Notes: a model not told the origin generated them from the letters alone. Shown: positions 1,832-64,000, counted from the first letter of the stretch. The stretch: 64,000 nt of DNA from an uncultured Prevotella sp. (GCA_905233425.1 CAJOEC010000002.1:29000-92999), one strand, 5' to 3'. A program made the numbers and translations.

Positions 1832-4579
1832 ATGAAGACTTTTGGATATTTCGACGATAAGAACAGGGAATACGTCATCACCGACCCGGCAACACCGTTC
1901 CCATGGATAAACTACTTAGGCAATGAAGATTTCTTCGGACTGATAAGCAACACCGCCGGCGGCTACGACTTCTACAAGGACGCCAAGTTCCGCCGCATCA
2001 CGCGCTATCGCTACAACGGAGTGCCAATGGATGCGGGGGGCAGATACTTCTATATCAAGGAAAGCCCCACCCCCGACCCCTCCCGCGGAGGGGAGGGGAG
2101 TAGTTACTCTGAGCCTTGGAGTCCGGGGTGGAAGCCCTGTAAGACCCCGCTCGACAGTTACGAGTGCCGCCATGGCATGAACTACACCCGCATTACGGGC
2201 AGTAAGAATGGGGTGGAGGCAAGCGTGCTATTCTTCGTGCCGCTGAAGACGTGGGCGGAGGTGCAGAAGCTGACGCTGACGAACAAGAGCGGAGATACGA
2301 AGCGGCTTAAGCTGTTCTCCTTCACGGAGTGGTGCCTCTGGAATGCGGCTACGGACATGGAGAACTTCCAACGCAACTGGTCGACGGGGGAGGTGGAGAT
2401 AGAGAAAGCCCCCCTTTCGCCCCCCGAGGGGGGCACTACACCCTCTGCCACTAAAAGTATAGAAGCCCCCTCGGGGGCCGTAGGGGGGGCTACAACGATT
2501 TACCACAAGACCGAATACAAGGAACGCCGCAACCACTACGCCTACTATGCGCTGACCAATGCCGAGGCGCAGGGCTTCGACACCGATCGCGAGAGCTTCA
2601 TCGGGCTGTATAACGATTTCTCGAACCCGCAGTGCGTCATGGCTGGGAAGCCCAGCAACAGCGTTGCGCATGGGTGGAGCCCCATAGCCTCCCATTACGT
2701 CGAGGTGGAGCTACAGCCAGGAGAAAGCAAGGACTTCATCTTCGTGCTGGGGTACGAGGAGAATGAACAGGAGAAGAAGTTCAGCAGCCCCACCCCCAGC
2801 AGACCCTCCCCCCAGCCCCTCCCTGTGAGGGAGGGGAGTATATACTCTCAAGACGGAAATACAGCAACAGAAGTAACTACTCCCCTCCCTCACAGGGAGG
2901 GGTCGGGGGAGGGTCTTCTTCTTACCTCCCTCGGCTCTCTTGACCACACCATTATTAATAAAGAGAAGGCACATGCCGTCATTTCGCGTTTCTCGACTGT
3001 GGAGGCAGTTGATGCAGCCTTCGCCGAGTTGCGGGCAATGTGGGACGGGCTGCTGTCGAAGTTCACCGTGGAGAGCGGCGACGAGCGGCTCGACAGGATG
3101 GTGAATATCTGGAACCAGTACCAGTGCATGATCACGTTCTGCTTCTCCCGTAGCGCGTCATTCTTCGAGAGTGGCGTGGGGCGTGGCATGGGATTCCGCG
3201 ACTCAAACCAGGACCTTGTGGGCTTCGTCCACCAGATTCCGAGCCGTGCACGGCAGAGGATTATCGACATCGCCTCGACGCAGTTCCCCGACGGCGGTTG
3301 CTACCACCAGTACCAGCCACTGACGAAACGAGGCAACAACGACATCGGCGGAGGGTTCAACGACGACCCCTGCTGGCTCATCTTCGGCACGGTGGCATAT
3401 ATCAAGGAGACGGGCGACTTCTCCATCCTCGACGAGCCGGTGCCCTTCGACAACCAGCCGGGAACAGAGGTGTCGCTCTTTGAGCACCTGCGCATCTCGT
3501 TCAATCACGTCGTAGAGAACCTCGGCCCACATGCGCTGCCGCTCATAGGCCGCGCCGACTGGAACGACTGCCTGAACCTGAACTGCTTCTCATGGGACCC
3601 CAACGAGAGCTTCCAGACGACGGAGAACAACAGTGAAGGTTCGAAAGCCGAGAGCCTCATGATTGCCGGGCTGTTCGTGCTGACAGGGAAGCAGTACGTG
3701 GAGCTGTGCCGGGAGCTGGCTGGTTCGGTACACGGCGGCAATGCCGCCGTCTACAGGACAGAGGCCGACAGAGCACAAGGCTGTATCGACACCATGGTGG
3801 AGGCCGTGAAGAAGCACGGCTGGGACGGTGAGTGGTATCTCCGTGCCTACGACTTCTACGGCAACAAGATTGGAAGCAAGGAATGCGAGGAGGGAAAAAT
3901 CTTCATCGAGAGCCAGGGCTTCTGCACGATGGCAGGAATAGGACTTGAAGAGGGAATGGTCGACAAGGCCCTCGACTCGTGCAAGAAACACCTCGACTGC
4001 GAACACGGCATGGTGCTGAACAATCCCGCCTTCACCCGCTACTATGTGGAGATGGGCGAAATCTCAAGCTATCCAGCAGGCTACAAGGAGAACGCAGGTA
4101 TCTTCTGCCACAACAACCCGTGGGTTATCATCGGCGAGACCGTGGCACGACGTGGCAACGACGCCTGGGAGCACTACACGAAGATCGGCCCCGCGTGGAT
4201 CAAGGACCAGCAGCTGCACAAGGTGGAGCCTTACGTCTACTGTCAGATGGTGGCCGGCAAGGACGCCGCCAAGCCCGGAGAGGGCAAGAACTCATGGCTC
4301 ACCGGCACCGCCGCATGGAACTGGCTGACCATCACCCAGTATATCCTCGGCATTCGGCCTACCTATGACGGACTGGAGATTGACCCCTGCATTCCCTCGA
4401 CGCTGAAGGAATATCGCGTGCACCGCGTCCTCCGCGACGCTGAGTTCGAAATAACGGTGAAGAACCCCGACGGGAAACAGAGCGGGGTGACGAGCGTGAC
4501 CCTCGACGGGAAAACCGTCGAGCGCGGCCGTGCCATAAAGGCAACGCCGGGTAAGCATGTCGTTGAAGTGATAATGTAA
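1832..4579 (+). CDS. GH94 cellobiose/cellodextrin phosphorylase (cytoplasmic), with three in-frame repeat insertions
   Basis: The N-terminus [30 protein letters not shown] and the catalytic-region motif [11 protein letters not shown] match GH94 phosphorylases along the whole length. There is no signal peptide. The ORF is 915 aa versus roughly 810-820 aa for characterised enzymes. Confidence 0.9.
2063..2110. repeat. GC-rich hairpin insertion 1 inside GH94 (solo arm of the MITE-like family)
   Basis: agccccaccccc..CCCCTCC-cgc-GGAGGGG (stem 2077-2083/2087-2093)..gaggggagta..actct. It shares flanking strings with the left arm of the 2801-2917 element and encodes [16 protein letters not shown]. 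Confidence 0.7.
2406..2492. repeat. GC-rich nested-palindrome insertion 2 inside GH94
   Basis: Perfect palindromes GCCCCCCGAGGGGGGC (2419-2434) and GCCCCCTCGGGGGC (2465-2478), bounded by AGCCCCCC (2407) and GGGGGGCT (2484). Encodes [29 protein letters not shown]. Confidence 0.7.
2801..2917. repeat. 117-bp MITE-like element with ~35-nt terminal inverted repeats, in frame inside GH94
   Basis: Left arm agaccctccccccagcccctccctgtgagggagggg (2801-2836). Right arm cccctccctcacagggaggggtcgggggagggtct (2883-2917) is its near-perfect reverse complement. 117 bp equals 39 codons with no stop. Confidence 0.8.
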
Positions 4580-4647: not shown

Positions 4648-7104
4648 TTACAGGATGGTAACCTCGGAGAAATAGTGCTCGCGGAGGGGCTTGTGGACGG
4701 GGTCGCCTTTCAGCGTGACGGTCTGCTCGATGCGGATGTCCTGCGACGAGGCGCCAATCTTGATGACGTACTGGCCTGGGGCGATGTTCCATTGGCGCTG
4801 GCCCTCGTTGCTGTAGTAGCCGAACTGCTCGGTGTACAGTTTTACCTTGACGGTCTTGGACTCTCCGGGCTGTAACGACACGCGGATGAAACCCTGTAGC
4901 TGAATCGGCTTCAGAGGCTGGTCGGGAGATGTGGGTGAGAGATAAATCTGGGCCACCTCGTCGGCAGCGACTGCGCCGGTGTTCTTTATTTGGAAAGAGA
5001 GGGTGATGGCCTCGTCGGTGGCGCAGCCCTCGGCTGATGCCTCGGGAACGGTGGCTGTGCCCTCGGCTGATGCGTCGGGAACGGTGGTGGAAGCCTCAGG
5101 GACGGAATATTCGAAGGTGGTGTAGCTTAGTCCGTAGCCGAAGGGCCAGGCGACGCGTGGGTCTTGCTCAAGGCTGTAGTTATAGCACAGCGGCTCGTAG
5201 ACCTCGGTGTTGGGATAGCTTACGGAGAGCTTGCCCGATGGCGACACCTTGCCGAAGAGGATGTCGGTCACGGCGTTGCCGCCCTCCTCGCCCGGATACC
5301 ATGCCTGTATGACAGCGGCGCAACGCTCGGCAAGGCCGCTGATGACCTGTGCCCTGCCGCCGAATACCACGAGCACCACTGGCTTGCCTGTAGCCAGAAG
5401 CTCCTCGACAAACTCCTGCTGTTTGCCCGGCAGACGCAGACCCTGACGGTCGCGGTTCTCACCACAGAGCATCACATTCTCACCCACGGCTGCGATGATG
5501 ACATCGGCCTGACGTGCCATCTGCAACGCCTCCTTCTTGTCGGCCTTCTCGCCAGAGTCTACCTTACGATGCAGAATCTCGTACTCCCAAGCACGCTCGT
5601 CGCCCAGTTCGCTGAACTTGGTCTCAATCTCCTCAGTCCAGTCACAGCCACGGGAGTACATGAGGTTCACGCCTTCAGGCTTACGGCTCTGCATTCCCTC
5701 TAACAGGGTGACGATGTCGGGATGCTCCAGGTCGTCGGTGACCTTCTTCCAGAAGTAAGTCATGGAAGGGAAGGAGTAGTCGCCGCACATGGCCCACATA
5801 GAGTTGGCGTTAGGGCCGGTGAGGAGGATGTTTAGTGTTGAGGGTTGAGAGTTTAGAGTTGAGGGTTGAGAGTTTAGAGTTGAGGGTTGAGAGTTAAGCG
5901 TTGAGGGTTGAGAGTTGAGCGCAAGAGGCAGTACGCCGTTGTTCTCCAATAACACGATGCTCTGCGTTGCGATGTCGTAGGCAGTCTGCCTTTCCTCAGA
6001 CGTGTCGAGGGTGATGTCCTCTTTGCTGTAAAGGTAGGGGTTCTCATCGAAGAGACCGGCGCGGAATTTCATGCGGAGAACATCCTTGACAGCACGCTCG
6101 AAGGCTTCGGGTTTCACGAGACCCTTGTCGATGGCCTCCTGCAGATGCTGGTAGTTGGCACCGAAGGGGAAGTCGACATCGTTGCCCGCGTTGATTGCGG
6201 CGGCAGCTTTCTCTACAGGAGTGGACAAGTCGGGAATCTGGTCGATGGCCGTGTAGTCGCTGACTACCATGCCGTCGAAACCGATATAGCCGCGAAGAAT
6301 GTCCTGCAGGATTTCGCTGTTGGCCACACACCTCGTTCCATGCACATCGTGATAGCCCGGCATAAGAGCCACGCTGCCTGTCAGGCGTATCATCGCTTCG
6401 TGGGGCAGCAGAATCTCCTCCATCAGTTCCTTCTCGTCGGCATCGCCACCGCCGCCGTAGCCGAGGTAGTGTTTCGAGCAGGCACCCACGCCCTGCTTCA
6501 TGTCGCTCTGTTGCAGTCCCTTTACGAATGCTGTGCCCATGACGGCTGAGAGATAGCCGTCCTCGCCATACGACTCTTCCAGTCGGTTGAACGACGGAGT
6601 GCGGCACACGTCGACCATGGGCGATAGCGACAGTATGCCGCCCATCTTGCGTAAGGCTGTGCTCGTCTGCCGCGTCTTCACCTCGGCCAGTTCGGGATTG
6701 AACGAGCAGGCCTGGCCTATCTGTTGTGGATAGATGGTTGCGCCACGGGTGTCGATGCCCGAGAGCACCTCCTCGTGCATAAGTGCCGGAATGCCACTTG
6801 GCGTGTTCTTCATCAGCCACTGCTGCAAGGCGGCCACGTGGTCGCGCAATGTGTTAGGGTCGCGTGGTTTCTGTAGACAGAACTGCGAGAAATGGCCGAT
6901 GCCGTTTGGAATCAGCTCCCGGCATTTCGCCGTGTCGAGCTTTCCCTCGTCATCGAACAGTTCGTCCATGTACATACTCCTCAGTTGGGCGATGCGCTCC
7001 TCCTGAGTCATCCTTTCATAAAGTTCATTGACCTGCTGTTCCAAGTCGACAGCAGTGTTACAGCCTGTGAAAAGTACCGTCATAACAATCAATAGTTTGT
7101 TCAT
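4648..7104 (-). CDS. GH3 beta-glucosidase (periplasmic), with two in-frame tandem-repeat insertions
   Basis: Signal peptide, GH3 motifs KHYLGYGGGG and nucleophile region GFDGMVVSDY, and a C-terminal Fn3-like domain (GLSYTTFEYS.., ..IKNTG..). Confidence 0.9.
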   Translation of the reverse strand: MNKLLIVMTVLFTGCNTAVDLEQQVNELYERMTQEERIAQLRSMYMDELFDDEGKLDTAKCRELIPNGIGHFSQFCLQKPRDPNTLRDHVAALQQWLMKNTPSGIPALMHEEVLSGIDTRGATIYPQQIGQACSFNPELAEVKTRQTSTALRKMGGILSLSPMVDVCRTPSFNRLEESYGEDGYLSAVMGTAFVKGLQQSDMKQGVGACSKHYLGYGGGGDADEKELMEEILLPHEAMIRLTGSVALMPGYHDVHGTRCVANSEILQDILRGYIGFDGMVVSDYTAIDQIPDLSTPVEKAAAAINAGNDVDFPFGANYQHLQEAIDKGLVKPEAFERAVKDVLRMKFRAGLFDENPYLYSKEDITLDTSEERQTAYDIATQSIVLLENNGVLPLALNSQPSTLNSQPSTLNSQPSTLNSQPSTLNILLTGPNANSMWAMCGDYSFPSMTYFWKKVTDDLEHPDIVTLLEGMQSRKPEGVNLMYSRGCDWTEEIETKFSELGDERAWEYEILHRKVDSGEKADKKEALQMARQADVIIAAVGENVMLCGENRDRQGLRLPGKQQEFVEELLATGKPVVLVVFGGRAQVISGLAERCAAVIQAWYPGEEGGNAVTDILFGKVSPSGKLSVSYPNTEVYEPLCYNYSLEQDPRVAWPFGYGLSYTTFEYSVPEASTTVPDASAEGTATVPEASAEGCATDEAITLSFQIKNTGAVAADEVAQIYLSPTSPDQPLKPIQLQGFIRVSLQPGESKTVKVKLYTEQFGYYSNEGQRQWNIAPGQYVIKIGASSQDIRIEQTVTLKGDPVHKPLREHYFSEVTIL
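5028..5105. repeat. 33-bp tandem repeat x2.3 inside GH3
   Basis: cctcggctgatgcctcgggaacggtggctgtgc / cctcggctgatgcgtcgggaacggtggtggaag / cctcagggacgg. On the gene strand it encodes ..PEASTTVPDASAEGTATVPEASAEG.. Confidence 0.8.
5837..5920. repeat. 21-bp tandem repeat x4 (three RGTTGAG heptamers per unit) inside GH3
   Basis: gttgagggttgagagtttaga x2, then ..gttaagc and ..gttgagc variants. On the gene strand it encodes NSQPSTL x4, between the GH3 N-terminal and C-terminal domains (..NNGVLPLA[..]ILLTGPNAN..). Confidence 0.9.
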
Positions 7105-13748: not shown

Positions 13749-14762
13749 ATGAAAACCAAGAATATTTTCAAATCTCTCGCCCTGATTTGTTCCGTATGTT
13801 GCGGTTTAGCTGCAACAACCGCCTGCTCCAGCAACGATGATCCCTTCTTCACGGCAACTGAGGACGATGCCCCGCGCATCCTGAATACCGACATTCCCGA
13901 GGGCACAGGCGGCAATCCGGGTGTCATCAAGACCATCTCGCGTACCGAGAACTTCACATTCGAGGTGATGGTCACCCCCGTCCACTTCACCACCGTAACA
14001 TGGTTCATCGACGACGTTCAGGTGGCCGAGGGTCTCAAAATCGACGTGCCCGTGAAGACGGGCAGTCACACCCTGAAAATCGTGGCCACGACTACTAAGG
14101 GCCTCTCCACCTCACGCACTTGTACGCTTGTCGTATTGCCCGTTGATGACGACCCCGTGCCTGGCGACGACATCTACGACCGCCTCGTCAAGCCCGGCAC
14201 CAAGGCCAAGCTCCACGGCGCTTACATGTCGAAGGTCGTGAAGGTCATTATCGGCAGCGCCGCCGTCAGCGCTACCTACAACGCCGACGAAGACTGTGTG
14301 GAGTACACCGTCCCCGAACTTCCCGACGGTGTTTATCCCTTGCAGGTGGCCGATGCCGATGGCAACATCTTTGATGCCGGACAAATCGAGCTGAACGCAA
14401 ATCCCGAGTACCCCGATGTAAGCAAAGAGACCACCCTCTGGGAAGGTTCTTTCAACGTCGCATGGGATAATCCCTTCAAGGAACTCCAGAAGGAACTCAT
14501 TAACCACGTGAAGGCCGGCACCATCCTCCGCGCCTACGTCACAGGCTCAGGCCAGGGTGCTGCCACTACCGCATGGTGGCGTAACATCCTCACCGGTGTC
14601 TCCGAGGACGACGTGCCCGGCGGTCGTGGCGACATTATGATTAACGGCGACGCTGTTTTGGAGTACACCCTCATCGACCAGTCCATCTCCCTCCTGAAGG
14701 CCCAGGACGGTTTCCTCATGGTCGGCAATGGCTACACCCTCAAAAAGATTACGGTGGAATAG
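13749..14762 (+). CDS. PUL-encoded surface lipoprotein, putative SusE/F-like glycan-binding protein
   Basis: Lipobox LAATTAC. A beta-rich 337-aa protein in the position usually held by surface glycan-binding proteins. No catalytic motif recognised. Confidence 0.5.
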   Translation: MKTKNIFKSLALICSVCCGLAATTACSSNDDPFFTATEDDAPRILNTDIPEGTGGNPGVIKTISRTENFTFEVMVTPVHFTTVTWFIDDVQVAEGLKIDVPVKTGSHTLKIVATTTKGLSTSRTCTLVVLPVDDDPVPGDDIYDRLVKPGTKAKLHGAYMSKVVKVIIGSAAVSATYNADEDCVEYTVPELPDGVYPLQVADADGNIFDAGQIELNANPEYPDVSKETTLWEGSFNVAWDNPFKELQKELINHVKAGTILRAYVTGSGQGAATTAWWRNILTGVSEDDVPGGRGDIMINGDAVLEYTLIDQSISLLKAQDGFLMVGNGYTLKKITVE

Positions 14763-14770
14763 GCAAATCA

Positions 14771-14852
14771 TTCCCCCGGTGGGAACAAATCATTCCCACC
14801 GGGGGAATAAATTGTTCCCCCGGTGGGAATAAAACGTTCCCCCGGTGGGAAT
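14771..14852. repeat. Array of four 15-bp palindromic units TTCCCCCGGTGGGAA (one inverted), ~22-23 bp period
   Basis: Cores at 14771-14785, 14793-14807 (reverse-complement form TTCCCACCGGGGGAA), 14815-14829 and 14838-14852. Confidence 0.85.
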
Positions 14853-14876
14853 GAAATGTCTCCTCCCACGTGAATC

Positions 14877-14948: not shown

Positions 14949-16139
14949 TTACAGCAGGTTCATCGTGTCGGTGGCAATCATCAGCTCCTCGTCGGTGGGG
15001 ATGACTACAACCTTCACGCGGCTGTCGTCGGCAGAGATGACTGCCTCCTCGCCGCGCACCTTGTTCTTCTCCTCGTCGAACTTCACGCCGAGGAACTCCA
15101 TGTTCTTGCAGACCTCCGAGCGCATACCAATCTGGTTCTCGCCGACGCCGGCTGTGAACACGATGACATCCAGGCCGCCCATGGCTGCGGCATAGGCACC
15201 GATGTATTTCTTTATGCGGTAGAAATACATGTCCTGGGCCAGCTGTGCGCGCTCGTTGCCAGCCTTGGCGGCGCTTTCCACGTCGCGCATGTCGCTGCTG
15301 CCGCCCGTCAGACCGGCCACGCCGCTCTTCTTGTTCAGCAGGGCCGACATGCCGTCGGCATCGAGGCCCAGCTTCTTCTCGATGAACGTCACGGCACCGC
15401 CGTCGATGTCGCCGGCACGGGTGCCCATCATCAGCCCCTCCAACGGGGTCAGGCCCATCGACGTGTCGATGCACTTGCCGTCGACGACTGCGGCGATGCT
15501 TCCGCCGTTGCCCACGTGGCAGGTCACCATCTTCGTGCCCTCGGCCTTGATGCCAAGGAACTCACAGGCACGGGCCGAGACGTAGCGGTGGCTGGTGCCG
15601 TGAAAACCGTAGCGGCGAATGCCGTACTTCTCGTAAAGTTCGTAGGGGATGGCATACATGAAAGCCTTTGGCGGCATGGTCTGGTGGAAGGCGGTGTCGA
15701 ACACGCCTACCTGGGGCAGCCCCGGCATCAGCTCCTTCACGGCGTTCACACCCTTCAGGTTGGCGGGGTTGTGAAGCGGGGCCAGGTCGGAGCATTTCTC
15801 AAACTCCTTCAGCACCTCGTCGGTGAGCACCACGCTCTTGTTGAACTTCTCGCCGCCGTGCACCATGCGGTGGCCCACAGCGTCAATCTCCTTCAGATCC
15901 TTGATGACACCAATCTCGGGGTCGGTCAATAGCGAGAAGATGAACTTCACTCCCTCGGTGTGCTCGGGGATGTCGTGCATTATCTGCCGCTTCTCGCCGT
16001 TTGCCAGCTTCACCTTCACGAATGCGCCGTCGAGGCCCACGCGCTCGGCACCGCCACTTGTCATCACACTCTTGTCGTCCATGTTATACAGGGCATACTT
16101 GATAGACGAACTTCCACAATTCAAAACTAATATCTTCAT
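14949..16139 (-). CDS. ackA: Acetate kinase
   Basis: Full-length acetate kinase pattern: MKILVLNCGSSSIKY.., ..RRYGFHGTSHRYV.., ..VFTAGVGEN.. Confidence 0.95.
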   Translation of the reverse strand: MKILVLNCGSSSIKYALYNMDDKSVMTSGGAERVGLDGAFVKVKLANGEKRQIMHDIPEHTEGVKFIFSLLTDPEIGVIKDLKEIDAVGHRMVHGGEKFNKSVVLTDEVLKEFEKCSDLAPLHNPANLKGVNAVKELMPGLPQVGVFDTAFHQTMPPKAFMYAIPYELYEKYGIRRYGFHGTSHRYVSARACEFLGIKAEGTKMVTCHVGNGGSIAAVVDGKCIDTSMGLTPLEGLMMGTRAGDIDGGAVTFIEKKLGLDADGMSALLNKKSGVAGLTGGSSDMRDVESAAKAGNERAQLAQDMYFYRIKKYIGAYAAAMGGLDVIVFTAGVGENQIGMRSEVCKNMEFLGVKFDEEKNKVRGEEAVISADDSRVKVVVIPTDEELMIATDTMNLL

Positions 16140-16143
16140 AATC

Positions 16144-16279
16144 AGACCCCCTCCCGACCTCCCCCTGTATGGGGAGGAGTGGTTACCTTTGGGAGTTATA
16201 GGGGCATTTCTTTAAATGGTTACACTTGCTTTTTTCTATCTATTCCCCTCCATTCAGGGAGGGGTTAAGGGGAGGGTCT
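16144..16279. repeat. 136-bp MITE-like hairpin element filling the pta-ackA spacer
   Basis: Left arm agaccccctcccgacctccccctgtatggggagg (16144-16177) and right arm cccctccattcagggaggggttaaggggagggtct (16245-16279) are inverted repeats of the same family as 2801-2917. The right end overlaps the pta stop codon. Confidence 0.8.
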
Positions 16280-17288
16280 ACTTCTTCGCGTCCATGGCCT
16301 GGCAGGCGGTGATGGCGACGAGGTAATAGATGTCGTCGACGGAGCAGCCGCGTGAGAGGTCGTTCACCGGGCGGGCTATGCCTTGTAGGATGGGGCCTAT
16401 GGCCACGGCGTCGCCGAGGCGCTGCACGAGTTTGTAGGCGATGTTTCCCACCTCGAGGCAGGGGAATACGAGGACGTTGGCATTTCCGGCGATGTCGCTG
16501 CCCGGAGCCTTCTTCTTGCCCACAGAGGGCACGAGGGCGGCATCGGCCTGCAGCTCGCCGTCAATCTTGATGCTGGGGTCGAGTTCCTTTGCCAAACGCG
16601 TGGCCTCTGTCACCTTGTCGACCACCTCGTGGCTGGCGCTTCCCTTCGTCGAGAACGACAGCATGGCTACACGTGGGTCGTCGAATCCAGCCACCGAGCG
16701 GGCTGTCTGCGCCGTGCACACGGCAATCTGGCTGAGCTGGTTGGCGTCGGGCATGGGCGTAACGGCCACGTCGGCGAAGACGAGCACGCCGTTCTCGCCG
16801 TATTCCGGCTTCTTAGTGATCATAAGCATGGCTCCGCTGACGCATGTGATGCCCGGGGCGCACTTGATGATCTGTAGGGCGGGGCGAAGTGTCTCGCCAG
16901 TCGTCGACAGGGCACCGGAGATCTGTCCGTCGGCCCCTTCCGTCTTGATAATCATGCAGCCGAGGTAGAGCGGGTCCTTCACCAGCTCGCGGGCTTTCTC
17001 TATTGTCATGCCCTTCTTCTCGCGCAGCTTCGTGAGCAGCTGGGCCAGCTCCTCCGAGCGCTCGTAGTTCAGCGGATCGATGAGCGTAGCCTTGCCGATG
17101 TGGGTCAGCCCCTTCTCCTCGGCCAGGGCGTTCACCTTCGCGGGGTTGCCAATGAGTATGAGGTCTGCGATGTCGTCGGCCAGCACGCGGTCGGCGGCAC
17201 AAAGTGTGCGCTCCTCCTCAGCTTCGGGGAGCACGATGCGCTGTTTGTTGCTCTTAGCACGCGCAATAATCTGTTCAATTAGTCCCAT
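16278..17288 (-). CDS. pta: Phosphate acetyltransferase
   Basis: MGLIEQIIARAKSNKQRIVLPEAEEERTL.. and the remainder match Pta. ATG 17288 was chosen because the track ORF carries a 27-codon upstream extension through the promoter region. Confidence 0.9.
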   Translation of the reverse strand: MGLIEQIIARAKSNKQRIVLPEAEEERTLCAADRVLADDIADLILIGNPAKVNALAEEKGLTHIGKATLIDPLNYERSEELAQLLTKLREKKGMTIEKARELVKDPLYLGCMIIKTEGADGQISGALSTTGETLRPALQIIKCAPGITCVSGAMLMITKKPEYGENGVLVFADVAVTPMPDANQLSQIAVCTAQTARSVAGFDDPRVAMLSFSTKGSASHEVVDKVTEATRLAKELDPSIKIDGELQADAALVPSVGKKKAPGSDIAGNANVLVFPCLEVGNIAYKLVQRLGDAVAIGPILQGIARPVNDLSRGCSVDDIYYLVAITACQAMDAKK

Positions 17289-17338
17289 AAATGAGTTTTG
17301 TTTGTTGATTGTTTGGTTAATAAAAAGGTTTGTGACTG

Positions 17339-17346
17339 CAAAATTA
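17339..17346 (-). promoter_or_regulatory. Candidate -7 box (TAATTTTG) for pta-ackA
   Basis: The reverse complement of caaaatta, about 50 nt upstream of the pta ATG. Confidence 0.45.
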
Positions 17347-17452
17347 CTCATTTTCCCGCAAACCGCCAAACATTTTACTACTCCTATCCCCTAATATTTA
17401 TTAAAGATGTACAGTTTTTTTGCAAAAAGGAGTCGTTCTCGATTTATTTTCG

Positions 17453-30524: not shown

Positions 30525-31289
30525 ATGAAAACAATTGTTATTATCCCCGCCCGCTATGCTTCAACACGTTTCCCCGGCAAGCCCTTGGCCTTGCTCGGAG
30601 GAAAGCCAGTGGTGCAGTGGGCTTACGAAACTGTCGCCAAGATGTTTGAGTATGTCTATGTCGCCACCGACGACGAGCGCATACGCCAGACCGTGGAGGC
30701 ATTTGGTGGCAGGGCTGTTATGACCCGTGCCGACCACAAGAGCGGCACCGACCGCATCTGCGAGGCCGTTGAGACGCTGGGCATTGCCGAAGACAACGAC
30801 ATCGTGGTGAACATCCAGGGCGACGAGCCGTTCATAAAGATTGCGCAGATATTGACAGTGTGCGGCCAGTTCTCCGACCTTCAGACGCAGATAGCCACAC
30901 TTGGCATACCATTTAAGACCATGGATGCAGTGGACAATCCCAACTCGCCGAAGATTGTCACCGACAACAACGGCAACGCCCTATATTTCAGCCGCAGTGT
31001 CATACCCTTCGTGCGCGGAACTGAACACGGACAATGGCTGGCACAGTTCCCATTTCTGAAGCACATCGGTATCTATGCCTACCGCTACCATGTGCTGCGC
31101 GAGATAACACAGCTGCCGCAGAGTCCGTTGGAGATGGCTGAGAGTCTGGAACAGCTGCGATGGCTGCAGAACGGCTACCGCATTCGCGTGGGCATCACCG
31201 AAGAGGAGACAGTGGGAATAGACACCCCCGAAGACCTGGCACGTGCAGAGGCCATGCTGGCTGCCGGAGGGAATTTCCCGTCTCATTAG
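30525..31289 (+). CDS. kdsB: 3-deoxy-manno-octulosonate cytidylyltransferase (CMP-KDO synthetase)
   Basis: MKTIVIIPARYASTRFPGKPL.., ..HKSGTDRI.., ..VNIQGDEPF.. ATG 30525 was chosen over the 41-codon upstream extension in the track. Confidence 0.92.
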   Translation: MKTIVIIPARYASTRFPGKPLALLGGKPVVQWAYETVAKMFEYVYVATDDERIRQTVEAFGGRAVMTRADHKSGTDRICEAVETLGIAEDNDIVVNIQGDEPFIKIAQILTVCGQFSDLQTQIATLGIPFKTMDAVDNPNSPKIVTDNNGNALYFSRSVIPFVRGTEHGQWLAQFPFLKHIGIYAYRYHVLREITQLPQSPLEMAESLEQLRWLQNGYRIRVGITEEETVGIDTPEDLARAEAMLAAGGNFPSH

Positions 31290-31293
31290 GCCT

Positions 31294-31410
31294 CATAAGT
31301 CTTATAAGTCTCATAAGTCTCATAAGTCCTATAAGTCTCATAAGTCCTATAAGTCTCATAAGTCCTATAAGTCTCATAAGTCCTATAAGTCCCATAAGCC
31401 CCATAATTAG
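31294..31410. repeat. 9-bp tandem array (YATAAGTCY x13) occupying essentially all of the kdsB-sensor kinase spacer
   Basis: cataagtct tataagtct cataagtct cataagtcc tataagtct .. cataagccc cataattag, with an 18-bp higher-order alternation. Confidence 0.9.
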
Positions 31411-31415
31411 TCCCA

Positions 31416-34400
31416 GTGGTCTCATTGTTCCCATCATCCCCAGCGCTGCCATCAGTCGCAGACCGTCGCGCCAGTCCTCTTCTCTTTTTGCTGTTGGCGC
31501 TATTGGCCGCCTGCAGCCCCGGGGGCGTTCCCACTGCCGACTCGCTCAACGACCAGGCTTACTACTGGCACTACCGCAATGTAGACTCTACCGAGCATTA
31601 CGCCCGTCTGGCCCTTCACTCGTCGCCCAACTATGCTACCGGGCAGGCCGAGGCAATGAACAACTTGGCTTTCGTAAGGCTTGTGCGCATGGACTACGAC
31701 GGCGCACGCCGAATCCTCGACTCCATACCGATCATCACCGACAACCAGATAGAGATGCTCGTGGGCTACGTACAGCAGATGCGGTTATGCCAGCGTCGCT
31801 CTGCCAACCGCGAGTTCTATGACTACCGCGAACAGGCTACACGCTGCCTCCAGCGCATCGACGAGGACCGCTCGGTGCTCACACCACGGCAACAACGCCG
31901 CATGCTCTATGCAGAGAGCGAGATGGCCATCGTCACCTCCACATATTATTATTATGTGGGACTGGAGCGGCAGTCGTCGGAGACGATGCTTGCCATAGCC
32001 CCTGGCATAGAGCGCGATACCGCCCAATACCTCAACTATCTCTACAACGTCGGGGCGGGCGGAATAATCACCGCCGGTTCACAGACCGACATTAGCCAGC
32101 AGGAGTTCGACCATCTGATGCGCTGCCACCTCCTGGCCCGACATACCGGCTGTGTCTTTTTTGAGGCCAACGCACTCGAGGCCATGGCCGAGCACCTGAT
32201 AAACCCAGCCAGCCGTAGCATGATTATTGCTGACAATCTGCCGGCAATGAAATTCCTGAACCCCGACGGTGTGTCGGACGACAGCCTCCCCCTGTGGCTT
32301 TCCGGGAAAGCGCTCGACATGTTCTCTGCCTACGGCGACACCTACCAGATAGCTGGTGCATATCGCACATTGGCTTCATGCTATCTCGCACAGGATGACT
32401 ACCAGCATGCCCTCGACTGTCTGCAAATGAGCCTCAGCGACACCATCATCGAGCAGGCCCCCGACCTCGTGGCCAGCATCCGCGAACAGATGAGCGTGGC
32501 CTTCGCCGCCGTCGACAACAAGGTCGAGAGCGACCGAAACCGCAACATCTACCTCGACCTACAGGAACAGACACGACAGGACCGCCAGTTGGAGGCGCGT
32601 GCCGGACAGTTAGAGCAGTCGCTGAGCAACACCAGCCGCATGTTGTGGGCTGTCATCGCCACCATCGTCGTGCTGGTGGCCGTCGTGGCGTTTTACTATC
32701 AGTGGCGCAGACGGCGTGCTGACATGCCCGACGGTGACATGGAAGAGCGCGAGGAGCAGCTGCGTGAACAGATTGCCGTCATGCGTTTGCGTGTGGAACA
32801 GGGTGAGCGACGCCATCTGGAGCAGAGGGCGAAAGTGTCGCTTATAACAGGCATAACGCCATTCATCGACCGAATACTTCACACCATCTCACGCCTCGCC
32901 CAGTCATCCCCGGCAGGGACACCACTACACGAGCAGCGGATGGAATATGCTATAGAGCTGACCGACGAAATAAACCGACAGAACACGCTGCTGACAAACT
33001 GGATACAGCTGCGCCAGGGGGAGTTGAGCCTGCACATAGAGACATTTCCCTTGCAGGATCTGCTCGACATGGTAAGGCGCTCAGAGCAGAACTTCGCCTC
33101 GAAGGGCATCACCCTCAGCGTGCTCCCTTCCACAGCCAGCGTCAAGGCCGACCGCGTGCTGACTCTATTCATGCTCAACACCCTTGCCGACAATGCCCGG
33201 AAGTTCACCCCGCAGGGAGGCTCGGTGACTATAAGCACTACTGAGGCTTCCGACTATGTGGAGATTTCGGTCAGCGACACAGGCTGCGGCATCGACCAGC
33301 AGACGCTTGCCCACATCTTCGAGCAGTCCCATGGCTTTGGCCTTCGCAACTGCAAGGGCATCATGGAGAAGTACCGCAAGATGAGTGCCATCTTCCGGGT
33401 GTGCACAATAGCTGCCGAAAGCACAGTCGGCGTGGGCAGCCGCTTCTTCTTCCGTCTGCCGAAAGGGACTTTAGGCCGTATGGGTCATATAGGCATTATA
33501 AGCCTTGTATGCCTTATGTCATTTGCCACAGCCACTGCACAGCCGACGGTGAACAGTCTCGACCGCGCTGCCAGTTATGCCGACTCGGCATATTTCTCAA
33601 ACGTCTATGGCTACTACGAGCGTGCTCTGCTGTTTGCCGACTCATGCCGTCAATGCCTCAACGACCATTTCCGCCAGCATCATCCGGGCAGCGCAGACAC
33701 CCTTCTCGCCGTCGACGACCTCGCGGCAGTGCCCACGGACATACGATGGTTCCACGACAGTATAGACTGTAGCTACAGCACCATACTCGACATGCGCAAC
33801 GAGAGCGCGGTGGCCGCGCTCGCACTCCACAAGTGGAATCTCTACCAATACAACAACCGCATCTACACACAGCTGTTCAAGGAGCTGTCGGCTGACAACT
33901 CGCTCGACGACTACTGCCGCAAGATGCAGCTGTCGCAGACAAACCGACAGGTGGCCGCAGTAATGCTTGTGCTGCTCTTCATCTGCATCCTTGCCGCTGT
34001 GGCATGGCAGATGGTGCAGATGCTCAGCCTCTCGGAACGGCGGCGCAGACAGCAGCAGGAACGTCTCGACGCTCTGGCCGACGAGCTGCAGCGGCTGACG
34101 ATGGAAAACAATGCACTACATGTCAGCAATGCGGTGCTCGACAACACCCTCTCCACACTGAAGCATGAGACGATGTACTACCCAAGCCGCATAAGACAGG
34201 CTGTTGAGCAGCGACTGGAGTTCCACGAACTGCAACAGCTCGTCTCATACTACCGCGAACTCTACGGACTGCTGAGTGCACAGTCGCTCGACCAGGTGCA
34301 AAGGTGCTCGCTTCACCTCAAGCCCCTTCATCATGGAATCCTCGGCGACGAGAACCTCATTAACTTCCTCTTCGACATCCTCAAGCGCGAGAATGCACAA

Positions 34401-34655
34401 CAGCCGCCCACGGTAGAATATGCGACGAAGGACGAGAAATATGTGGAATGCCGGGCCACGATGACCGCCTTACGGCGCACAGACCTGTTCACTCCTTCCG
34501 ACGAAGCCAACATTCCCTGGCTGCTCTGCCGCCAGATAGTGCGCGACCATGGCGAGGCCACAAACCGCAGGGCATGTGCCATACGCGCAGAGGCACACCC
34601 CAACGCCACAATAATAGTTATCACCCTCCCCAAGAGTCCCGCAAAGTCGCAATAA
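31416..34655 (+). CDS. TPR-containing sensor histidine kinase fused in frame to a DUF5113-like module
   Basis: GTG start directly after the repeat array. Lipoprotein-like signal (..LLALLAAC), TPR-like region and a TM helix. HATPase N-box LNTLADNARKF, G1 SDTGCGI, G2 GFGLRNCKG. After ..FFFRLPKG the frame continues into a second signal-peptide-like segment (MGHIGIISLVCLMSFATATAQ) and a module containing LSTLKHETMYYPSRI. Confidence 0.7.
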   Translation: MVSLFPSSPALPSVADRRASPLLFLLLALLAACSPGGVPTADSLNDQAYYWHYRNVDSTEHYARLALHSSPNYATGQAEAMNNLAFVRLVRMDYDGARRILDSIPIITDNQIEMLVGYVQQMRLCQRRSANREFYDYREQATRCLQRIDEDRSVLTPRQQRRMLYAESEMAIVTSTYYYYVGLERQSSETMLAIAPGIERDTAQYLNYLYNVGAGGIITAGSQTDISQQEFDHLMRCHLLARHTGCVFFEANALEAMAEHLINPASRSMIIADNLPAMKFLNPDGVSDDSLPLWLSGKALDMFSAYGDTYQIAGAYRTLASCYLAQDDYQHALDCLQMSLSDTIIEQAPDLVASIREQMSVAFAAVDNKVESDRNRNIYLDLQEQTRQDRQLEARAGQLEQSLSNTSRMLWAVIATIVVLVAVVAFYYQWRRRRADMPDGDMEEREEQLREQIAVMRLRVEQGERRHLEQRAKVSLITGITPFIDRILHTISRLAQSSPAGTPLHEQRMEYAIELTDEINRQNTLLTNWIQLRQGELSLHIETFPLQDLLDMVRRSEQNFASKGITLSVLPSTASVKADRVLTLFMLNTLADNARKFTPQGGSVTISTTEASDYVEISVSDTGCGIDQQTLAHIFEQSHGFGLRNCKGIMEKYRKMSAIFRVCTIAAESTVGVGSRFFFRLPKGTLGRMGHIGIISLVCLMSFATATAQPTVNSLDRAASYADSAYFSNVYGYYERALLFADSCRQCLNDHFRQHHPGSADTLLAVDDLAAVPTDIRWFHDSIDCSYSTILDMRNESAVAALALHKWNLYQYNNRIYTQLFKELSADNSLDDYCRKMQLSQTNRQVAAVMLVLLFICILAAVAWQMVQMLSLSERRRRQQQERLDALADELQRLTMENNALHVSNAVLDNTLSTLKHETMYYPSRIRQAVEQRLEFHELQQLVSYYRELYGLLSAQSLDQVQRCSLHLKPLHHGILGDENLINFLFDILKRENAQQPPTVEYATKDEKYVECRATMTALRRTDLFTPSDEANIPWLLCRQIVRDHGEATNRRACAIRAEAHPNATIIVITLPKSPAKSQ
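33487..33531. repeat. Degenerate 9-mer run related to YATAAGTCY at the kinase/second-module junction
   Basis: gtatgggtc atataggca ttataagcc ttgtatgcc ttatgtcat. It contains the in-frame ATG at 33489. Confidence 0.55.
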
Positions 34656-36147: not shown

Positions 36148-36300
36148 GATTTATAATTGGCTCTACGAGATCCGTGTTGGCCATTATGACACAGTCTTGT
36201 GGTCGCTTTCGCACCAATACGGGGAATCATGGAGAATAGTACGGGAAAACAGGAAGAGAGGTTCGGCTTCCGAGGGAGTCAGCCCGTACACCCGCGGTTC

Positions 36301-36383
36301 ATAGCGCCCGCCAAAAACATTCACAGCGGCCGCTACGAATATTAATAGCGTCCGCCAAAAACATTCACAGCGGCCGCTACGAA
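36301..36383. repeat. Two 39-bp direct repeats (44-bp period), each carrying a 20-bp near-palindrome TTCacAGCGGCCGCTacGAA
   Basis: atagcgcccgccaaaaacattcacagcggccgctacgaa (36301-36339) and atagcgtccgccaaaaacattcacagcggccgctacgaa (36345-36383). A partial third copy starts near 36426. Confidence 0.8.
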
Positions 36384-62278: not shown

Positions 62279-64000
62279 TTAACGGTAGACGTCTTCCTTT
62301 TTCAACTCCACCACTTTGCCAAAGCGGGCGAGGGCTTTCATGTCGGTGAGTTTCCTGTCGCCGATGACAATCCAGACACGGTGCGGGTTGTCGCCGATGT
62401 GCTGGCGATGGAACTGCACGATGTCCTGTGTGGTGACGGCGGGCAGCTGTCGGGCGATGTCGGCATTGGGGTCGGCGGTGTAGCCCTCCCTCAACTGGTT
62501 GGCCACATATTTTGACATTGTGCGGAAGGTGGGGTAGCTGTTCTGTATGTCGTTGAGCACGCTCTGGCGGGCGGCATCGAGGTTTTCCTCCTTCATGGGC
62601 ATCTGGCGCAGCAGCGAGTCGATGGTGGCGATGGCCTCCAGCGTCTTGTCGGCCTGTGTGCCGGTGGCGGTGACGTATGCCTGTGGCTCTGAGGCATGAA
62701 GGGCGAGACTGGTGGAGTAGCTATGGCCATTAGTGGAATAGGCCAGCGAGCGGAACTCACGGACATTCTGGAAAAGCACCGACGACATGCCGCCACCGAA
62801 GTATTCGTCCCAAAGCTTGAACCGGGCGCGCTGCTCTGCCGTGGGCAGGGGACTGACGGCATCGTAGCTGACGACATAGTTCTGGCGCGACTTGGGCACG
62901 TGGAAGAAATAGACCGTAGGCTCCGTGTACTGCTGGAGGGGACGGAATGTGTCGGCCTGTGGCTTGGTGCACAGGGCGAGGGGCAGCGTTTGTTGCGACT
63001 GAGTCGCAACATACTCGACGGGATGGCGGCCGCAGTAGAACAGCTCGCAGTCGTACTGTTGCAGCTCATGGAAAAGGGCGAGCAGGTCGTCGTTCTTCAG
63101 GGCTTTCACCTCTTTCTTGCTCAGTTGGAGGTAGGAGGACTTCTGACCGTAGAGGATGCGGTGCAGCACGGGTTTCAGCACGTCGTCCTTCATCTTGCCG
63201 AAGCTCTTGCGGTCCACCTTGTCGGCATCCTTGGCGTCTTTGAGGGCATCATTGTCACCCTTTGCGGCACGCAGGAAATGGGCCAGCAGCTGTAGGGCGG
63301 GCTTCAGTTCGCTGTCGGGGCCTGTGAGGTTGATGCTGAAGGCCACGTCGCCGGGAACGATTTCCATTGTGGTGCCGATGCGCTGCCAGGCTCTCTCCAA
63401 CTGCTGCTTGGTCAGCGAGTCGGTGCCGAGCTGCGACAGATAGGGTGCCAGAATGTTCAGCGCGGGCGTGTGCAGGTTACCATCCTTATAGCGGATGGTG
63501 AAGGTGAAAATATCGTTGACGGGATTCTTCTTGTAGTAGAGGGTGGGACTTATAGGTCTTATAGGACTTATGGGTCTTATAGGACTTATAGGACCTATAG
63601 GAAGGACCGTCACGTCGTGGTCGAAGTCTACGGTGCGGACTGCCGTCTGCTCCACCAGCATCTGCTCCAACTGCTTTGCGAAGGCCGATTTCGCATCGGT
63701 GTTCTTCGGACTGATGGGCTTGTAGCCTGGCTGCTTCAGCGTTTCCTTGTTGGGTGTGCCGTATTTCTTCGTCAGCTTGATGTAGTTGGCACCGTAGTAT
63801 TTCTTGGCCGCAGCCACCACGTCGGCCTTCGTCAGTCGGCGGATACCCTCGATCTTGTCGAGCACGTCCTGCCACGTGCGGCCTTTCGAGAAGGCATCCA
63901 CCAGCGTCTGTGCACGGCTGCTGATGGTCTCTATCTCCTGTTCGGCCTCCATCACCATCTCTCGCTTCAGCGCCTCCACCTGCTGGTCGCTGAAGTTGCC
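62279..64000 (-). CDS. M16 (pitrilysin/insulinase) family peptidase, C-terminal ~570 aa (5' end beyond window)
   Basis: The frame stays open to nt 64000, and the track start at 63979 is an internal GTG. Contains the M16 C-terminal-half motif FGGGMSSVLFQNVREFRSLAYS. Confidence 0.8.
   Translation of the reverse strand, partial: GNFSDQQVEALKREMVMEAEQEIETISSRAQTLVDAFSKGRTWQDVLDKIEGIRRLTKADVVAAAKKYYGANYIKLTKKYGTPNKETLKQPGYKPISPKNTDAKSAFAKQLEQMLVEQTAVRTVDFDHDVTVLPIGPISPIRPISPIRPISPTLYYKKNPVNDIFTFTIRYKDGNLHTPALNILAPYLSQLGTDSLTKQQLERAWQRIGTTMEIVPGDVAFSINLTGPDSELKPALQLLAHFLRAAKGDNDALKDAKDADKVDRKSFGKMKDDVLKPVLHRILYGQKSSYLQLSKKEVKALKNDDLLALFHELQQYDCELFYCGRHPVEYVATQSQQTLPLALCTKPQADTFRPLQQYTEPTVYFFHVPKSRQNYVVSYDAVSPLPTAEQRARFKLWDEYFGGGMSSVLFQNVREFRSLAYSTNGHSYSTSLALHASEPQAYVTATGTQADKTLEAIATIDSLLRQMPMKEENLDAARQSVLNDIQNSYPTFRTMSKYVANQLREGYTADPNADIARQLPAVTTQDIVQFHRQHIGDNPHRVWIVIGDRKLTDMKALARFGKVVELKKEDVYR
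63546..63601. repeat. Six YATAAGTCY-family 9-mers (reverse orientation) in frame inside the M16 peptidase gene
   Basis: ggacttata ggtcttata ggacttatg ggtcttata ggacttata ggacctata. On the gene strand it encodes PIGPISPIRPISPIRPISP. Confidence 0.85.

Follow-up and report, generated by a model that had tools for sequence, protein, structure and literature searches.

Among the repeats described in bacteria, the Rickettsia palindromic elements (RPEs; Ogata et al. 2000, 2002) stand closest to the case reported here, being short palindromic repeats that lie in frame in unrelated functional genes, as summarized in PMC10969869. Other intragenic bacterial elements of the MITE kind (miniature inverted-repeat transposable elements) include QMITE1 of Coxiella (PMC5896051) and, as cited in PMC10969869, the MITEs of Anabaena and intragenic ERIC. 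RAYT/REPIN systems have been reported mainly from gammaproteobacteria (PMC2817692), and the BoxC repeat of Escherichia coli measures 56 bp and occurs in about 32 copies (PMC2267715). A 2024 MITE review treats RPEs as the extreme case, only speculates on other prokaryotes, and leaves Bacteroidota unmentioned. Here, we analyzed a 64,000-nucleotide stretch of DNA from an uncultured Prevotella sp. (GCA_905233425.1 CAJOEC010000002.1:29000-92999; hereafter the window), in which a gene for a GH94 cellobiose phosphorylase contains four patches rich in proline, serine, glycine, and glutamate (P/S/G/E) that are encoded by palindromic DNA. An annotation made from the sequence alone (the original prediction) had proposed that a palindromic element entered this gene in frame, in the manner of RPEs, and that such behavior was undescribed for Bacteroidales; the latter agrees with our full-text literature searches, which gave no report of protein-coding palindromes in Bacteroidota. 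We consider it highly likely that the four patches are copies of small non-autonomous mobile DNA elements, lying in frame within loops of a functional enzyme gene and translated along with it as additional peptide.

The host gene gave an end-to-end match to the 811-aa cellobiose phosphorylase of Clostridium thermocellum (Protein Data Bank [PDB] entry 3qde; residues 3-915, 1158 bits; phmmer, all PDB chains), and Pfam placed PF06165 and PF17167 on its product, bearing out its initial reading as a GH94 phosphorylase. The RADWNDCLN block is conserved relative to 3qde, and the catalytic block (11 residues, R574-N584) is invariant across 63 orthologues. Although all sequences compared derive from metagenomes, the identical 915-aa protein is encoded on 3-4 independently assembled contigs, the inserts are at most 117 nt long with unique sequence on both sides, and orthologues bearing these inserts were sequenced at other centers, from other samples. 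A pseudogene, which the original prediction had named as a way for its reading to fail, is therefore contradicted by an intact open reading frame (ORF), invariant catalytic residues, and recovery of the same protein on several contigs. The query segments left unaligned against 3qde by phmmer (78-91, 193-220, and 320-373) coincide exactly with the palindromes, so that the three surplus patches first proposed were recovered as gaps; a fourth gap of ~9 residues, near residues 627-637, had been missed. The protein is likewise longer than is usual among its relatives, as had been predicted, but the appropriate baseline for this clade is ~826-851 aa and not 811.

The inserted elements are built from a basic module consisting of a short C-run, 2-4 nt, and a GC-rich hairpin (Table 1). 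In family A, the C-run is followed by 2-3 nt and the hairpin CCCCTCCC-loop-GGGAGGGG-AGT, and in family B, the hairpin is GCCCCCC-GA-GGGGGGC. A complete element (doublet) contains two inverted modules around a variable spacer of 30-130 nt, and the whole can fold as one long hairpin. Every palindrome listed in the original prediction was found where it had been placed, including the 117-nt unit of site 3. Its suggestion that one element had entered three times holds with respect to the insertions but not with respect to their identity, as sites 1 and 3 carry family A, site 2 carries family B, and a fourth palindrome is present; a single element family was ruled out because the A and B hairpins differ throughout.

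Table 1. Positions of the GH94 host gene, its inserted elements, and a non-coding relative (window coordinates).
Feature	Position	Strand	Remarks
GH94 cellobiose phosphorylase, host gene	1832..4579	+	915 aa, intact ORF
Site-1 insertion, family-A singlet (half element)	2063..2116	+	aa 78-95
Site-2 insertion, family-B doublet	2405..2491	+	aa 192-220
Extra duplicated outer C-run AGCAGCCCCACCCCCAGC, just before the A doublet	2783..2800	+	Tandem Repeats Finder
Site-3 insertion core, family-A doublet, 117 nt (39 codons)	2801..2917	+	Palindromic arms
Site-4 insertion, 27-nt palindrome GTACACGGCGGC-AAT-GCCGCCGTCTAC	3728..3754	+	Absent from the original prediction
Degenerate non-coding family-A doublet, pta-ackA spacer	16144..16279	.	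Flanking ORFs 14949..16139(-), 16278..17369(-)

At site 1, the module runs from the C-run AGCCCCACCCCC through GA and the hairpin CCCCTCC-CGC-GGAGGGG (2077-2093) to AGGGGAGTAGTTACTCT. The family-B doublet of site 2 has the layout AAGCCCCCC-TTTC-(GCCCCCCGAGGGGGGC)-spacer-(GCCCCCTCGGGGGC)-CGTA-GGGGGGGCT, with palindrome GCCCCCCGAGGGGGGC spanning 2419-2434 and palindrome GCCCCCTCGGGGGC spanning 2465-2478, the pair lying between AGCCCCCC (2407) and GGGGGGCT (2491); its inverted-repeat arms (2407-2441 and 2457-2491) are 35 nt long and 80% complementary, and the unit folds as single-stranded DNA at -27 kcal/mol (z = -3.6). The family-A doublet of site 3, arranged as AGACCCTCCCCCCAG-(CCCCTCCCTGTGAGGGAGGGG)-AGT..spacer..ACT-(CCCCTCCCTCACAGGGAGGGG)-TCG-GGGGAGGGTCT, has 38-nt arms that are 89% complementary (2809-2846 and 2872-2909), together with outer arms at 2798-2818 and 2899-2919, and folds as single-stranded DNA at -48.1 kcal/mol (z = -11.2). 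The duplicated outer run in front of it is part of a 15-nt-period repeat of 2.9 copies reported by Tandem Repeats Finder at 2782-2823, and doublets in L170, L175, and L120 are likewise flanked by doubled outer runs. Site 4 contains a perfect 8-bp stem at 3732-3750 (fold z = -3.9). Two matches to CCCCTCCCTNNNAGGGAGGGG are present in the window, whereas 100 shuffles gave an expectation of 0.00. A chance or compositional origin of the palindromes was ruled out by the shuffle controls. Three to four of the five copies within the window are coding; the hairpin modules are free of stops in every frame, and either full doublet, A or B, leaves 3/6 frames open. No Rfam family matched anywhere in the window at gathering thresholds.

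The non-coding relative between pta and ackA, also anticipated in the original prediction, is real as judged from its AGACCC...GGGAGGGTCT termini and two internal hairpins, though degenerate: it exactly fills the spacer, folds weakly (z = -1.6), and has stop codons in 6/6 frames. Its terminus supplies the last two bases of the pta stop codon TAG (16278-16280, minus strand). Termini starting with AG create TAG at the junction when they follow a T, and such a junction forms the host stop codon at pta and at L017 7760-7800; near position 4300 of L168, the AG terminus/T junction was seen only as sequence. Elements of this kind may thus supply or replace the stop codons of their hosts.

Comparison with orthologues showed the patches as blocks that come and go. 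Among the 120 closest proteins of a 5.8-billion-protein collection (74-100% identical), length ranged from 790 to 939 aa, and in the aligned orthologues it varied only at four sites, namely, the three patches and residues ~625-641. In a nucleotide alignment with L002-L005, each patch is present or absent as a block between conserved flanks; at site 1, for example, the empty alleles read GAAGGGGCCTGCATC in L003 and GACGGCAACACGGTG in L005. Site 2 reads EI[ED]GS[TV]IY in about 70 Bacteroidales species (GTDB) and in Clostridium; the best match in the GTDB representative-genome scan was 80% identical. The presence or absence of patches at nucleotide level, with a short ancestral state in Bacteroidales and Clostridium, is as the original prediction would have it. 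The B doublet is absent from L002, L003, and L005 and is present at site 2 of L021 (RUG178), and a B element of ~90 nt occurs at sites 1, 2, and 3 of the 939-aa orthologue L004 (P0003) and at site 3 of P0056. Identity among the three copies in L004 is 93-96%, and the indels that separate B copies are without exception 3 nt long. The A doublet is absent from L005, from L287-L290, and from about 70 Bacteroidales species. It is 96-97% identical across the window, L002, and L003, compared with 78-87% for the flanking coding DNA (Fisher p = 2e-3 to 3e-5), exceeding the flanking coding sequence with synonymous sites included, and the element is therefore either younger than the divergence of the genes or homogenized at the DNA level. 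The site-4 palindrome is also a presence/absence polymorphism, missing in L287 and L290, and has conserved GTA...TAC ends. Together with the copies in other genes described below, these comparisons show that the elements move or are copied between sites.

Several further observations were made on this gene and its relatives. In L004, the spacer directly after the phosphorylase stop codon (3234-3366) contains an A-like array with two CTACAAGGGAGGGGAGAGCCGC units, indicating that elements accumulate around the locus and not only inside it. A third in-frame family, IDHSxLTIDH...ANNGQxSMVNGQ, occurs at site 2 of P0077 and in an Mfd-like protein (L112 1190-3808), and a patch QTPPPSEGLGEA is common to site 1 of P0051 and site 3 of P0088; additional mobile in-frame families are thus present in the clade. 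Site-2 alleles that appear empty were ruled out as truly empty, since they carry 20-21-nt hairpins of their own in two register types.

Dispersal of the elements beyond the phosphorylase was examined by scanning JGI metagenomes for the A hairpin by exact pattern, which returned at least 120 stretches. Among the matches listed, contigs with a GC content of 58% or less hold 85 A-module copies, 30 of which fall within stop-free stretches no shorter than 250 aa. Host genes were confirmed with Pfam at ten loci, encoding RsgA, PIF1 helicase, an Mfd-like protein, RNase R (RNB), VapE, UvrA (two loci), peptidase U32, MnmG (GIDA), and a two-component propeller protein. The RNase R insert (L148) contains the same module as site 1 of the window and encodes essentially the same peptide, and all six reading frames are used across hosts, giving TPLPxREGxGGGS, YSPPSxGGAGGGS, PLPxREGS, NPSPxGRGV, and TPPxKGGE among other peptides. 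When 1.84 billion representative proteins were searched exhaustively for the A peptide (HMMER), 18 matches were obtained, of which ~13 were genuine and 5 were spurious repeat proteins; for two of the genuine matches, visual inspection suggested a TonB-dependent receptor and an AraC-like regulator. Although it lies outside the scan pattern, a conserved CCC[A/T]CCCCC run was found 2-3 nt upstream of the hairpin in nearly all matches listed, in contigs of 36-71% GC. At least 32 matches have an inverted partner within 260 nt and form doublets of 85-193 nt with AGACCC...GGGTCT-type termini, the terminal inverted repeats reading AGACCC[T/A]CCCC...GGGG[A/T]GGGTCT. The dispersal that the original prediction had asked to be checked is thus substantiated at other sites of the same gene, in an intergenic spacer, and in frame in unrelated housekeeping genes of related rumen bacteria. 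By eye, the peptidase U32 gene of L160 (473-2425) shows four patches (PPYGGGRGE, APSLRGRAGGEA, SPLPLKGGEP, and TPLPLWEGQGVG), and so multiple insertions per gene are not unique to cellobiose phosphorylase.

We propose that insertion itself is probably blind to reading frame and that selection would then retain only copies that are tolerated by the loop they enter, read in a frame without stops, and add a net length that is divisible by three. Because the GC-rich modules are stop-free, their survival in coding DNA would be likely. Such a filter is reflected in the coding copies, which are open in 3/6 frames, versus 0/6 for the intergenic copy. The inserts are presumably translated, as disordered P/G/S/E-rich loops, and the enzyme is presumably functional, both judged from the sequence. 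In an AlphaFold2 model built with 63 close orthologues (mean predicted local distance difference test [pLDDT] score of 57.6), which was used only for the order of secondary-structure elements, the sites are predicted, with low confidence, to lie between such elements in all four cases: after E73-77, between E189-193 and E221-226, between H312-314 and H378-386, and between H602-632 and H636-661. Why the same four loops have been entered repeatedly may be explained either by their tolerance or by targeting of pre-existing palindromes.

A number of observations weigh against this interpretation. The site-1 patch on its own does not fold significantly (z = -1.3), a hairpin of -48 kcal/mol within an mRNA is unusual, and the low pLDDT of the model limits placement to "between secondary-structure elements." Neither a target-site duplication nor a defined target was found at any of the 12 complete doublets. 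In relatives, sites 2 and 3 hold other short hairpins or repeats in place of a clean empty site, and some "insertions" may be replacements or local growth of a palindrome. Finally, a comparison of coding with non-coding doublets did not resolve a length bias toward multiples of three, as it was based on the hairpin-to-hairpin distance, which is not the same as insertion length.

The most serious competing explanation is that the patches grew locally by replication slippage and template-switch (snap-back) synthesis, without any mobile insertion. The stems of sites 2 and 4 do vary between orthologues while remaining perfectly Watson-Crick, as snap-back synthesis predicts; variable sites contain tandem peptide repeats such as AQHFSHS and EHSEHS, the window is rich in short tandem repeats, and the outer C-runs have been duplicated locally. 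Local growth nevertheless leaves unexplained both the same 90-117-nt sequences at different sites, in different genes, and in intergenic DNA and the conserved module architecture across contigs of 36-71% GC, and it is plausible just for the small hairpins of sites 2 and 4; as an account of the patches overall, we regard it as unlikely. That the inserted elements might be missing from the mature protein, through removal from the mRNA or translational bypassing, would fit the stability of the A doublet noted above. GC-rich palindromic elements in yeast mitochondrial genes are bypassed in translation, which provides a precedent. However, removal or bypassing would make unnecessary what was in fact found, namely, that a frame stays open in all coding copies as against stops in six frames of the intergenic one, that indels between B copies are all 3 nt, and that inserts are confined to places where the protein alignment can accommodate differences in length, and we consider this explanation very improbable.

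Selection on the protein itself offers another reading, in which the patches are flexible P/G/S/E-rich linkers or interaction motifs and their palindromy is incidental. The patches are indeed of low complexity, probably disordered according to the model (pLDDT below 50), and kept across species-level divergence. Against this, the same DNA is read in six frames across hosts, giving unrelated peptides, it also occurs as non-coding DNA, and its identity exceeds that of the flanking coding sequence even at synonymous sites, leaving very little probability for a selected peptide. Still less probable, in our judgment, is an assembly artifact or a decaying pseudogene: repeats can mislead assemblers and the sequence comes from metagenome assemblies, but the agreement between contigs, samples, and sequencing centers, the unique sequence around short inserts, and the intact ORF with its invariant catalytic residues all speak for a real and intact gene. 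Mobile elements inserted in frame and read through as peptide thus remain our strongly preferred explanation.

The shorter palindromes bear on how palindromy is kept. Site-2 alleles without the B element carry perfect hairpins of 20-21 nt, with CTTGACGG/CCGTCAAG in L002 and CTCAACGG/CCGTTGAG in L287, and the hairpin of L005 (CCCGAAGG/CCTTCGGG) is in a different register. At site 4, in a small sample of five orthologues, the 12 pairs are 88% paired and 7 of them have changed on both sides, with zero pairs showing a one-sided (G-U type) change and 0/500 shuffles reaching the covariation score. Because compensation is strictly Watson-Crick and the element is more conserved than the host gene, the pattern points to maintenance of the palindromes at the DNA level rather than as a selected RNA structure. 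Upkeep could be achieved by templated correction inside the palindrome or by gene conversion from other copies.

Modules also surround a candidate mobilizing enzyme. At L137, L138, L192, and L114, two modules enclose an ORF of ~130 aa. Five of the five module-flanked ORFs tested with Pfam were DUF559 (PF04480; E = 1e-29 to 1e-39), and all eight DUF559 ORFs in the loci examined are flanked by modules, with stems that differ at some loci (CCTCTCCC/GGGAGAGG in L191 and CTCCCCC/GGGGGAG in L017). DUF559 is predicted to be a Vsr-like PD-(D/E)XK nuclease (PMC1189080), and our full-text searches gave no report linking it to repeats. In an independent IMG/VR sample, chosen by protein similarity and not by hairpin, 9 of ~14 small DUF559 genes lie between inverted repeats of 12-35 nt, above shuffle controls, and the DUF559 gene of L211 has a full doublet on each side with AGACCCTCACCC...GGGTGAGGGTCT termini. 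Phage-encoded DUF559-like ORFs of more than 200 aa had no flanking modules, and the association is therefore limited to small stand-alone DUF559 genes. After ycjD, the DUF559 gene of E. coli K-12, comes the module CCCCTCTGGGGAGAGGG-TTA-GGGTGAGGGG, which is dispersed at a median of 17 and at most 30 copies per genome (5426 genomes) and is putatively BoxC. Also in E. coli K-12, ~40 nt of the ycjD 3' end (GGAGACGGTGCTGGAGAATATTC...) are duplicated downstream, before the BoxC-like module (L206 6360-6400), which suggests a past rearrangement at the element boundary.

There is a close parallel in RAYT genes, which have REPs on their flanks (PMC2817692, PMC3116915). By analogy, the small DUF559 nuclease, whose genes lie between these modules in many lineages, may be what mobilizes the elements, a proposal that we hold open rather than favor. 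There is no DUF559 gene within the 64-kb window, the association is correlative, and three of the four low-GC examples occupy one syntenic site and are therefore not independent, all of which count against it. More tentatively still, DUF559 proteins, including YcjD, could be the dedicated nucleases of a cross-phylum family of hairpin modules that includes BoxC-type repeats and constitutes a second system, evolutionarily separate from RAYT/REPIN, with a single-copy nuclease that keeps up a population of palindromic repeats; among rumen Prevotellaceae, the system would have spread into coding DNA, where it would continually add, swap, and remove peptides of 10-40 residues in core-enzyme loops. 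The association described here provides a concrete candidate for the enzyme behind BoxC-type repeats.

Repeats of other kinds were also observed in the window. The neighboring 818-aa ORF (4648-7104, minus strand), read as a GH3 beta-glucosidase, contains two in-frame tandem repeats at 5830-5916 and 5016-5087, one with a 21-nt unit (heptamer GTTGAGA) in 4.1 copies that encodes NSQPSTL four times and a second with a 33-nt unit in 2.2 copies that gives a duplicated ...VPDASAEG... segment; they represent a further way in which a conserved enzyme can vary in length without loss of frame. At 14751-14871, in the spacer that separates the ORF at 13749-14762 from the ackA 3' end, an array of roughly four 22-nt units (CAAATCATTCCCCCGGTGGGAA) forms nested perfect hairpins of 16 bp and belongs to a family distinct from A and B. 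A 9-nt microsatellite family (TATAAGTCC / TTATGAGAC) occurs twice, with 14 copies at 31280-31406, immediately upstream of the ORF at 31416-34655, and 6.3 copies at 63546-63602, within the ORF at 62279-63979 (minus strand), where they would read in frame. Lastly, a 22-nt unit (TTCACAGCGGCCGCCAAAAACA) is repeated 3.6 times at 36297-36383 and has an embedded NotI-like palindrome, GCGGCCGC.

Protein-coding palindromic repeats, so far described mainly for Rickettsia, would thus also exist in abundant free-living rumen Prevotellaceae, where they reach UvrA, RNase R, RsgA, MnmG, and a key enzyme of the cellulose pathway, which makes them a general behavior and the elements an active source of variation in protein length within an important lineage of the gut and rumen. 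Orthologue clusters become inflated and fragmented as a result (790 to 939 aa at about 75-100% identity), and gene callers and structure predictors can be misled by the inserts. The elements also mark GH94 loops that tolerate insertions of 14-54 residues, information that should be useful in enzyme engineering.

How these elements relate to the described systems can be summarized as follows. With repetitive extragenic palindromic (REP) sequences and REPINs (PMC3116915, PMC2817692, PMC3337134), they share two inverted hairpin units around a spacer that form one long hairpin, the coexistence of singlets and doublets, a small single-domain nuclease gene between units, the lack of target-site duplications, and compensatory changes that preserve palindromy. 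In contrast to REP-RAYT systems, the flanked gene encodes DUF559 and not a HUH/Y1 RAYT (Y1_Tnp), although no search aimed at RAYT genes was made in full genomes, there is no GTAG or CGTC tag, the distribution crosses phyla, and about a third of the low- and mid-GC copies among the matches listed are intragenic, whereas REPs are extragenic by definition. Since it is DUF559 genes that the modules flank, and since extragenic location does not hold for the copies, the elements are not members of the REP/RAYT group. The ycjD-adjacent, BoxC-like module has a copy number that agrees with the one reported for BoxC (PMC2267715). It also shares the architecture of hairpin, 2-3 nt, and G-run, but its stems are CCCTCT/AGAGGG, unlike those of family A. 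We know of no report of BoxC inside coding sequences. In their ends, the present elements resemble the BoxC-type repeats of E. coli. Like intragenic MITEs, the elements are non-autonomous, have terminal inverted repeats, and occasionally form in-frame fusions with host ORFs; however, intragenic MITEs are sporadic and come with terminal repeats of the classical type and with target-site duplications, whereas the present elements have a hairpin at each end and recur in conserved enzymes, with up to four per gene. No insertion sequence with matching ends was found in the sequences examined, and because both a parent insertion sequence and target-site duplications are lacking, the elements are not classical MITEs.

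The closest likeness is to RPEs, as summarized in PMC10969869: both are multi-copy, dispersed palindromic repeats (~100-150 bp for RPEs; 117 nt with 38-nt arms for the A doublet here), both lie in frame in many unrelated and apparently functional housekeeping genes, both add peptide where the protein fold allows, and in both, coding and intergenic copies coexist. The hosts differ, being free-living rumen Bacteroidota here and obligate intracellular Alphaproteobacteria in the case of RPEs. The present elements are also distinguished by a GC-rich, modular structure of C-run plus hairpin, by the use of several reading frames, by repeated hits on the same loops by different families, and by a candidate associated nuclease gene. 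We know of no nuclease gene associated with RPEs. The RPE-like behavior originally proposed is upheld by the in-frame copies in unrelated housekeeping genes, and since the host is a metagenome-assembled genome of the Prevotellaceae and the likeness established here is one of behavior, the elements are best described as an analogue of RPEs rather than as members of that family.

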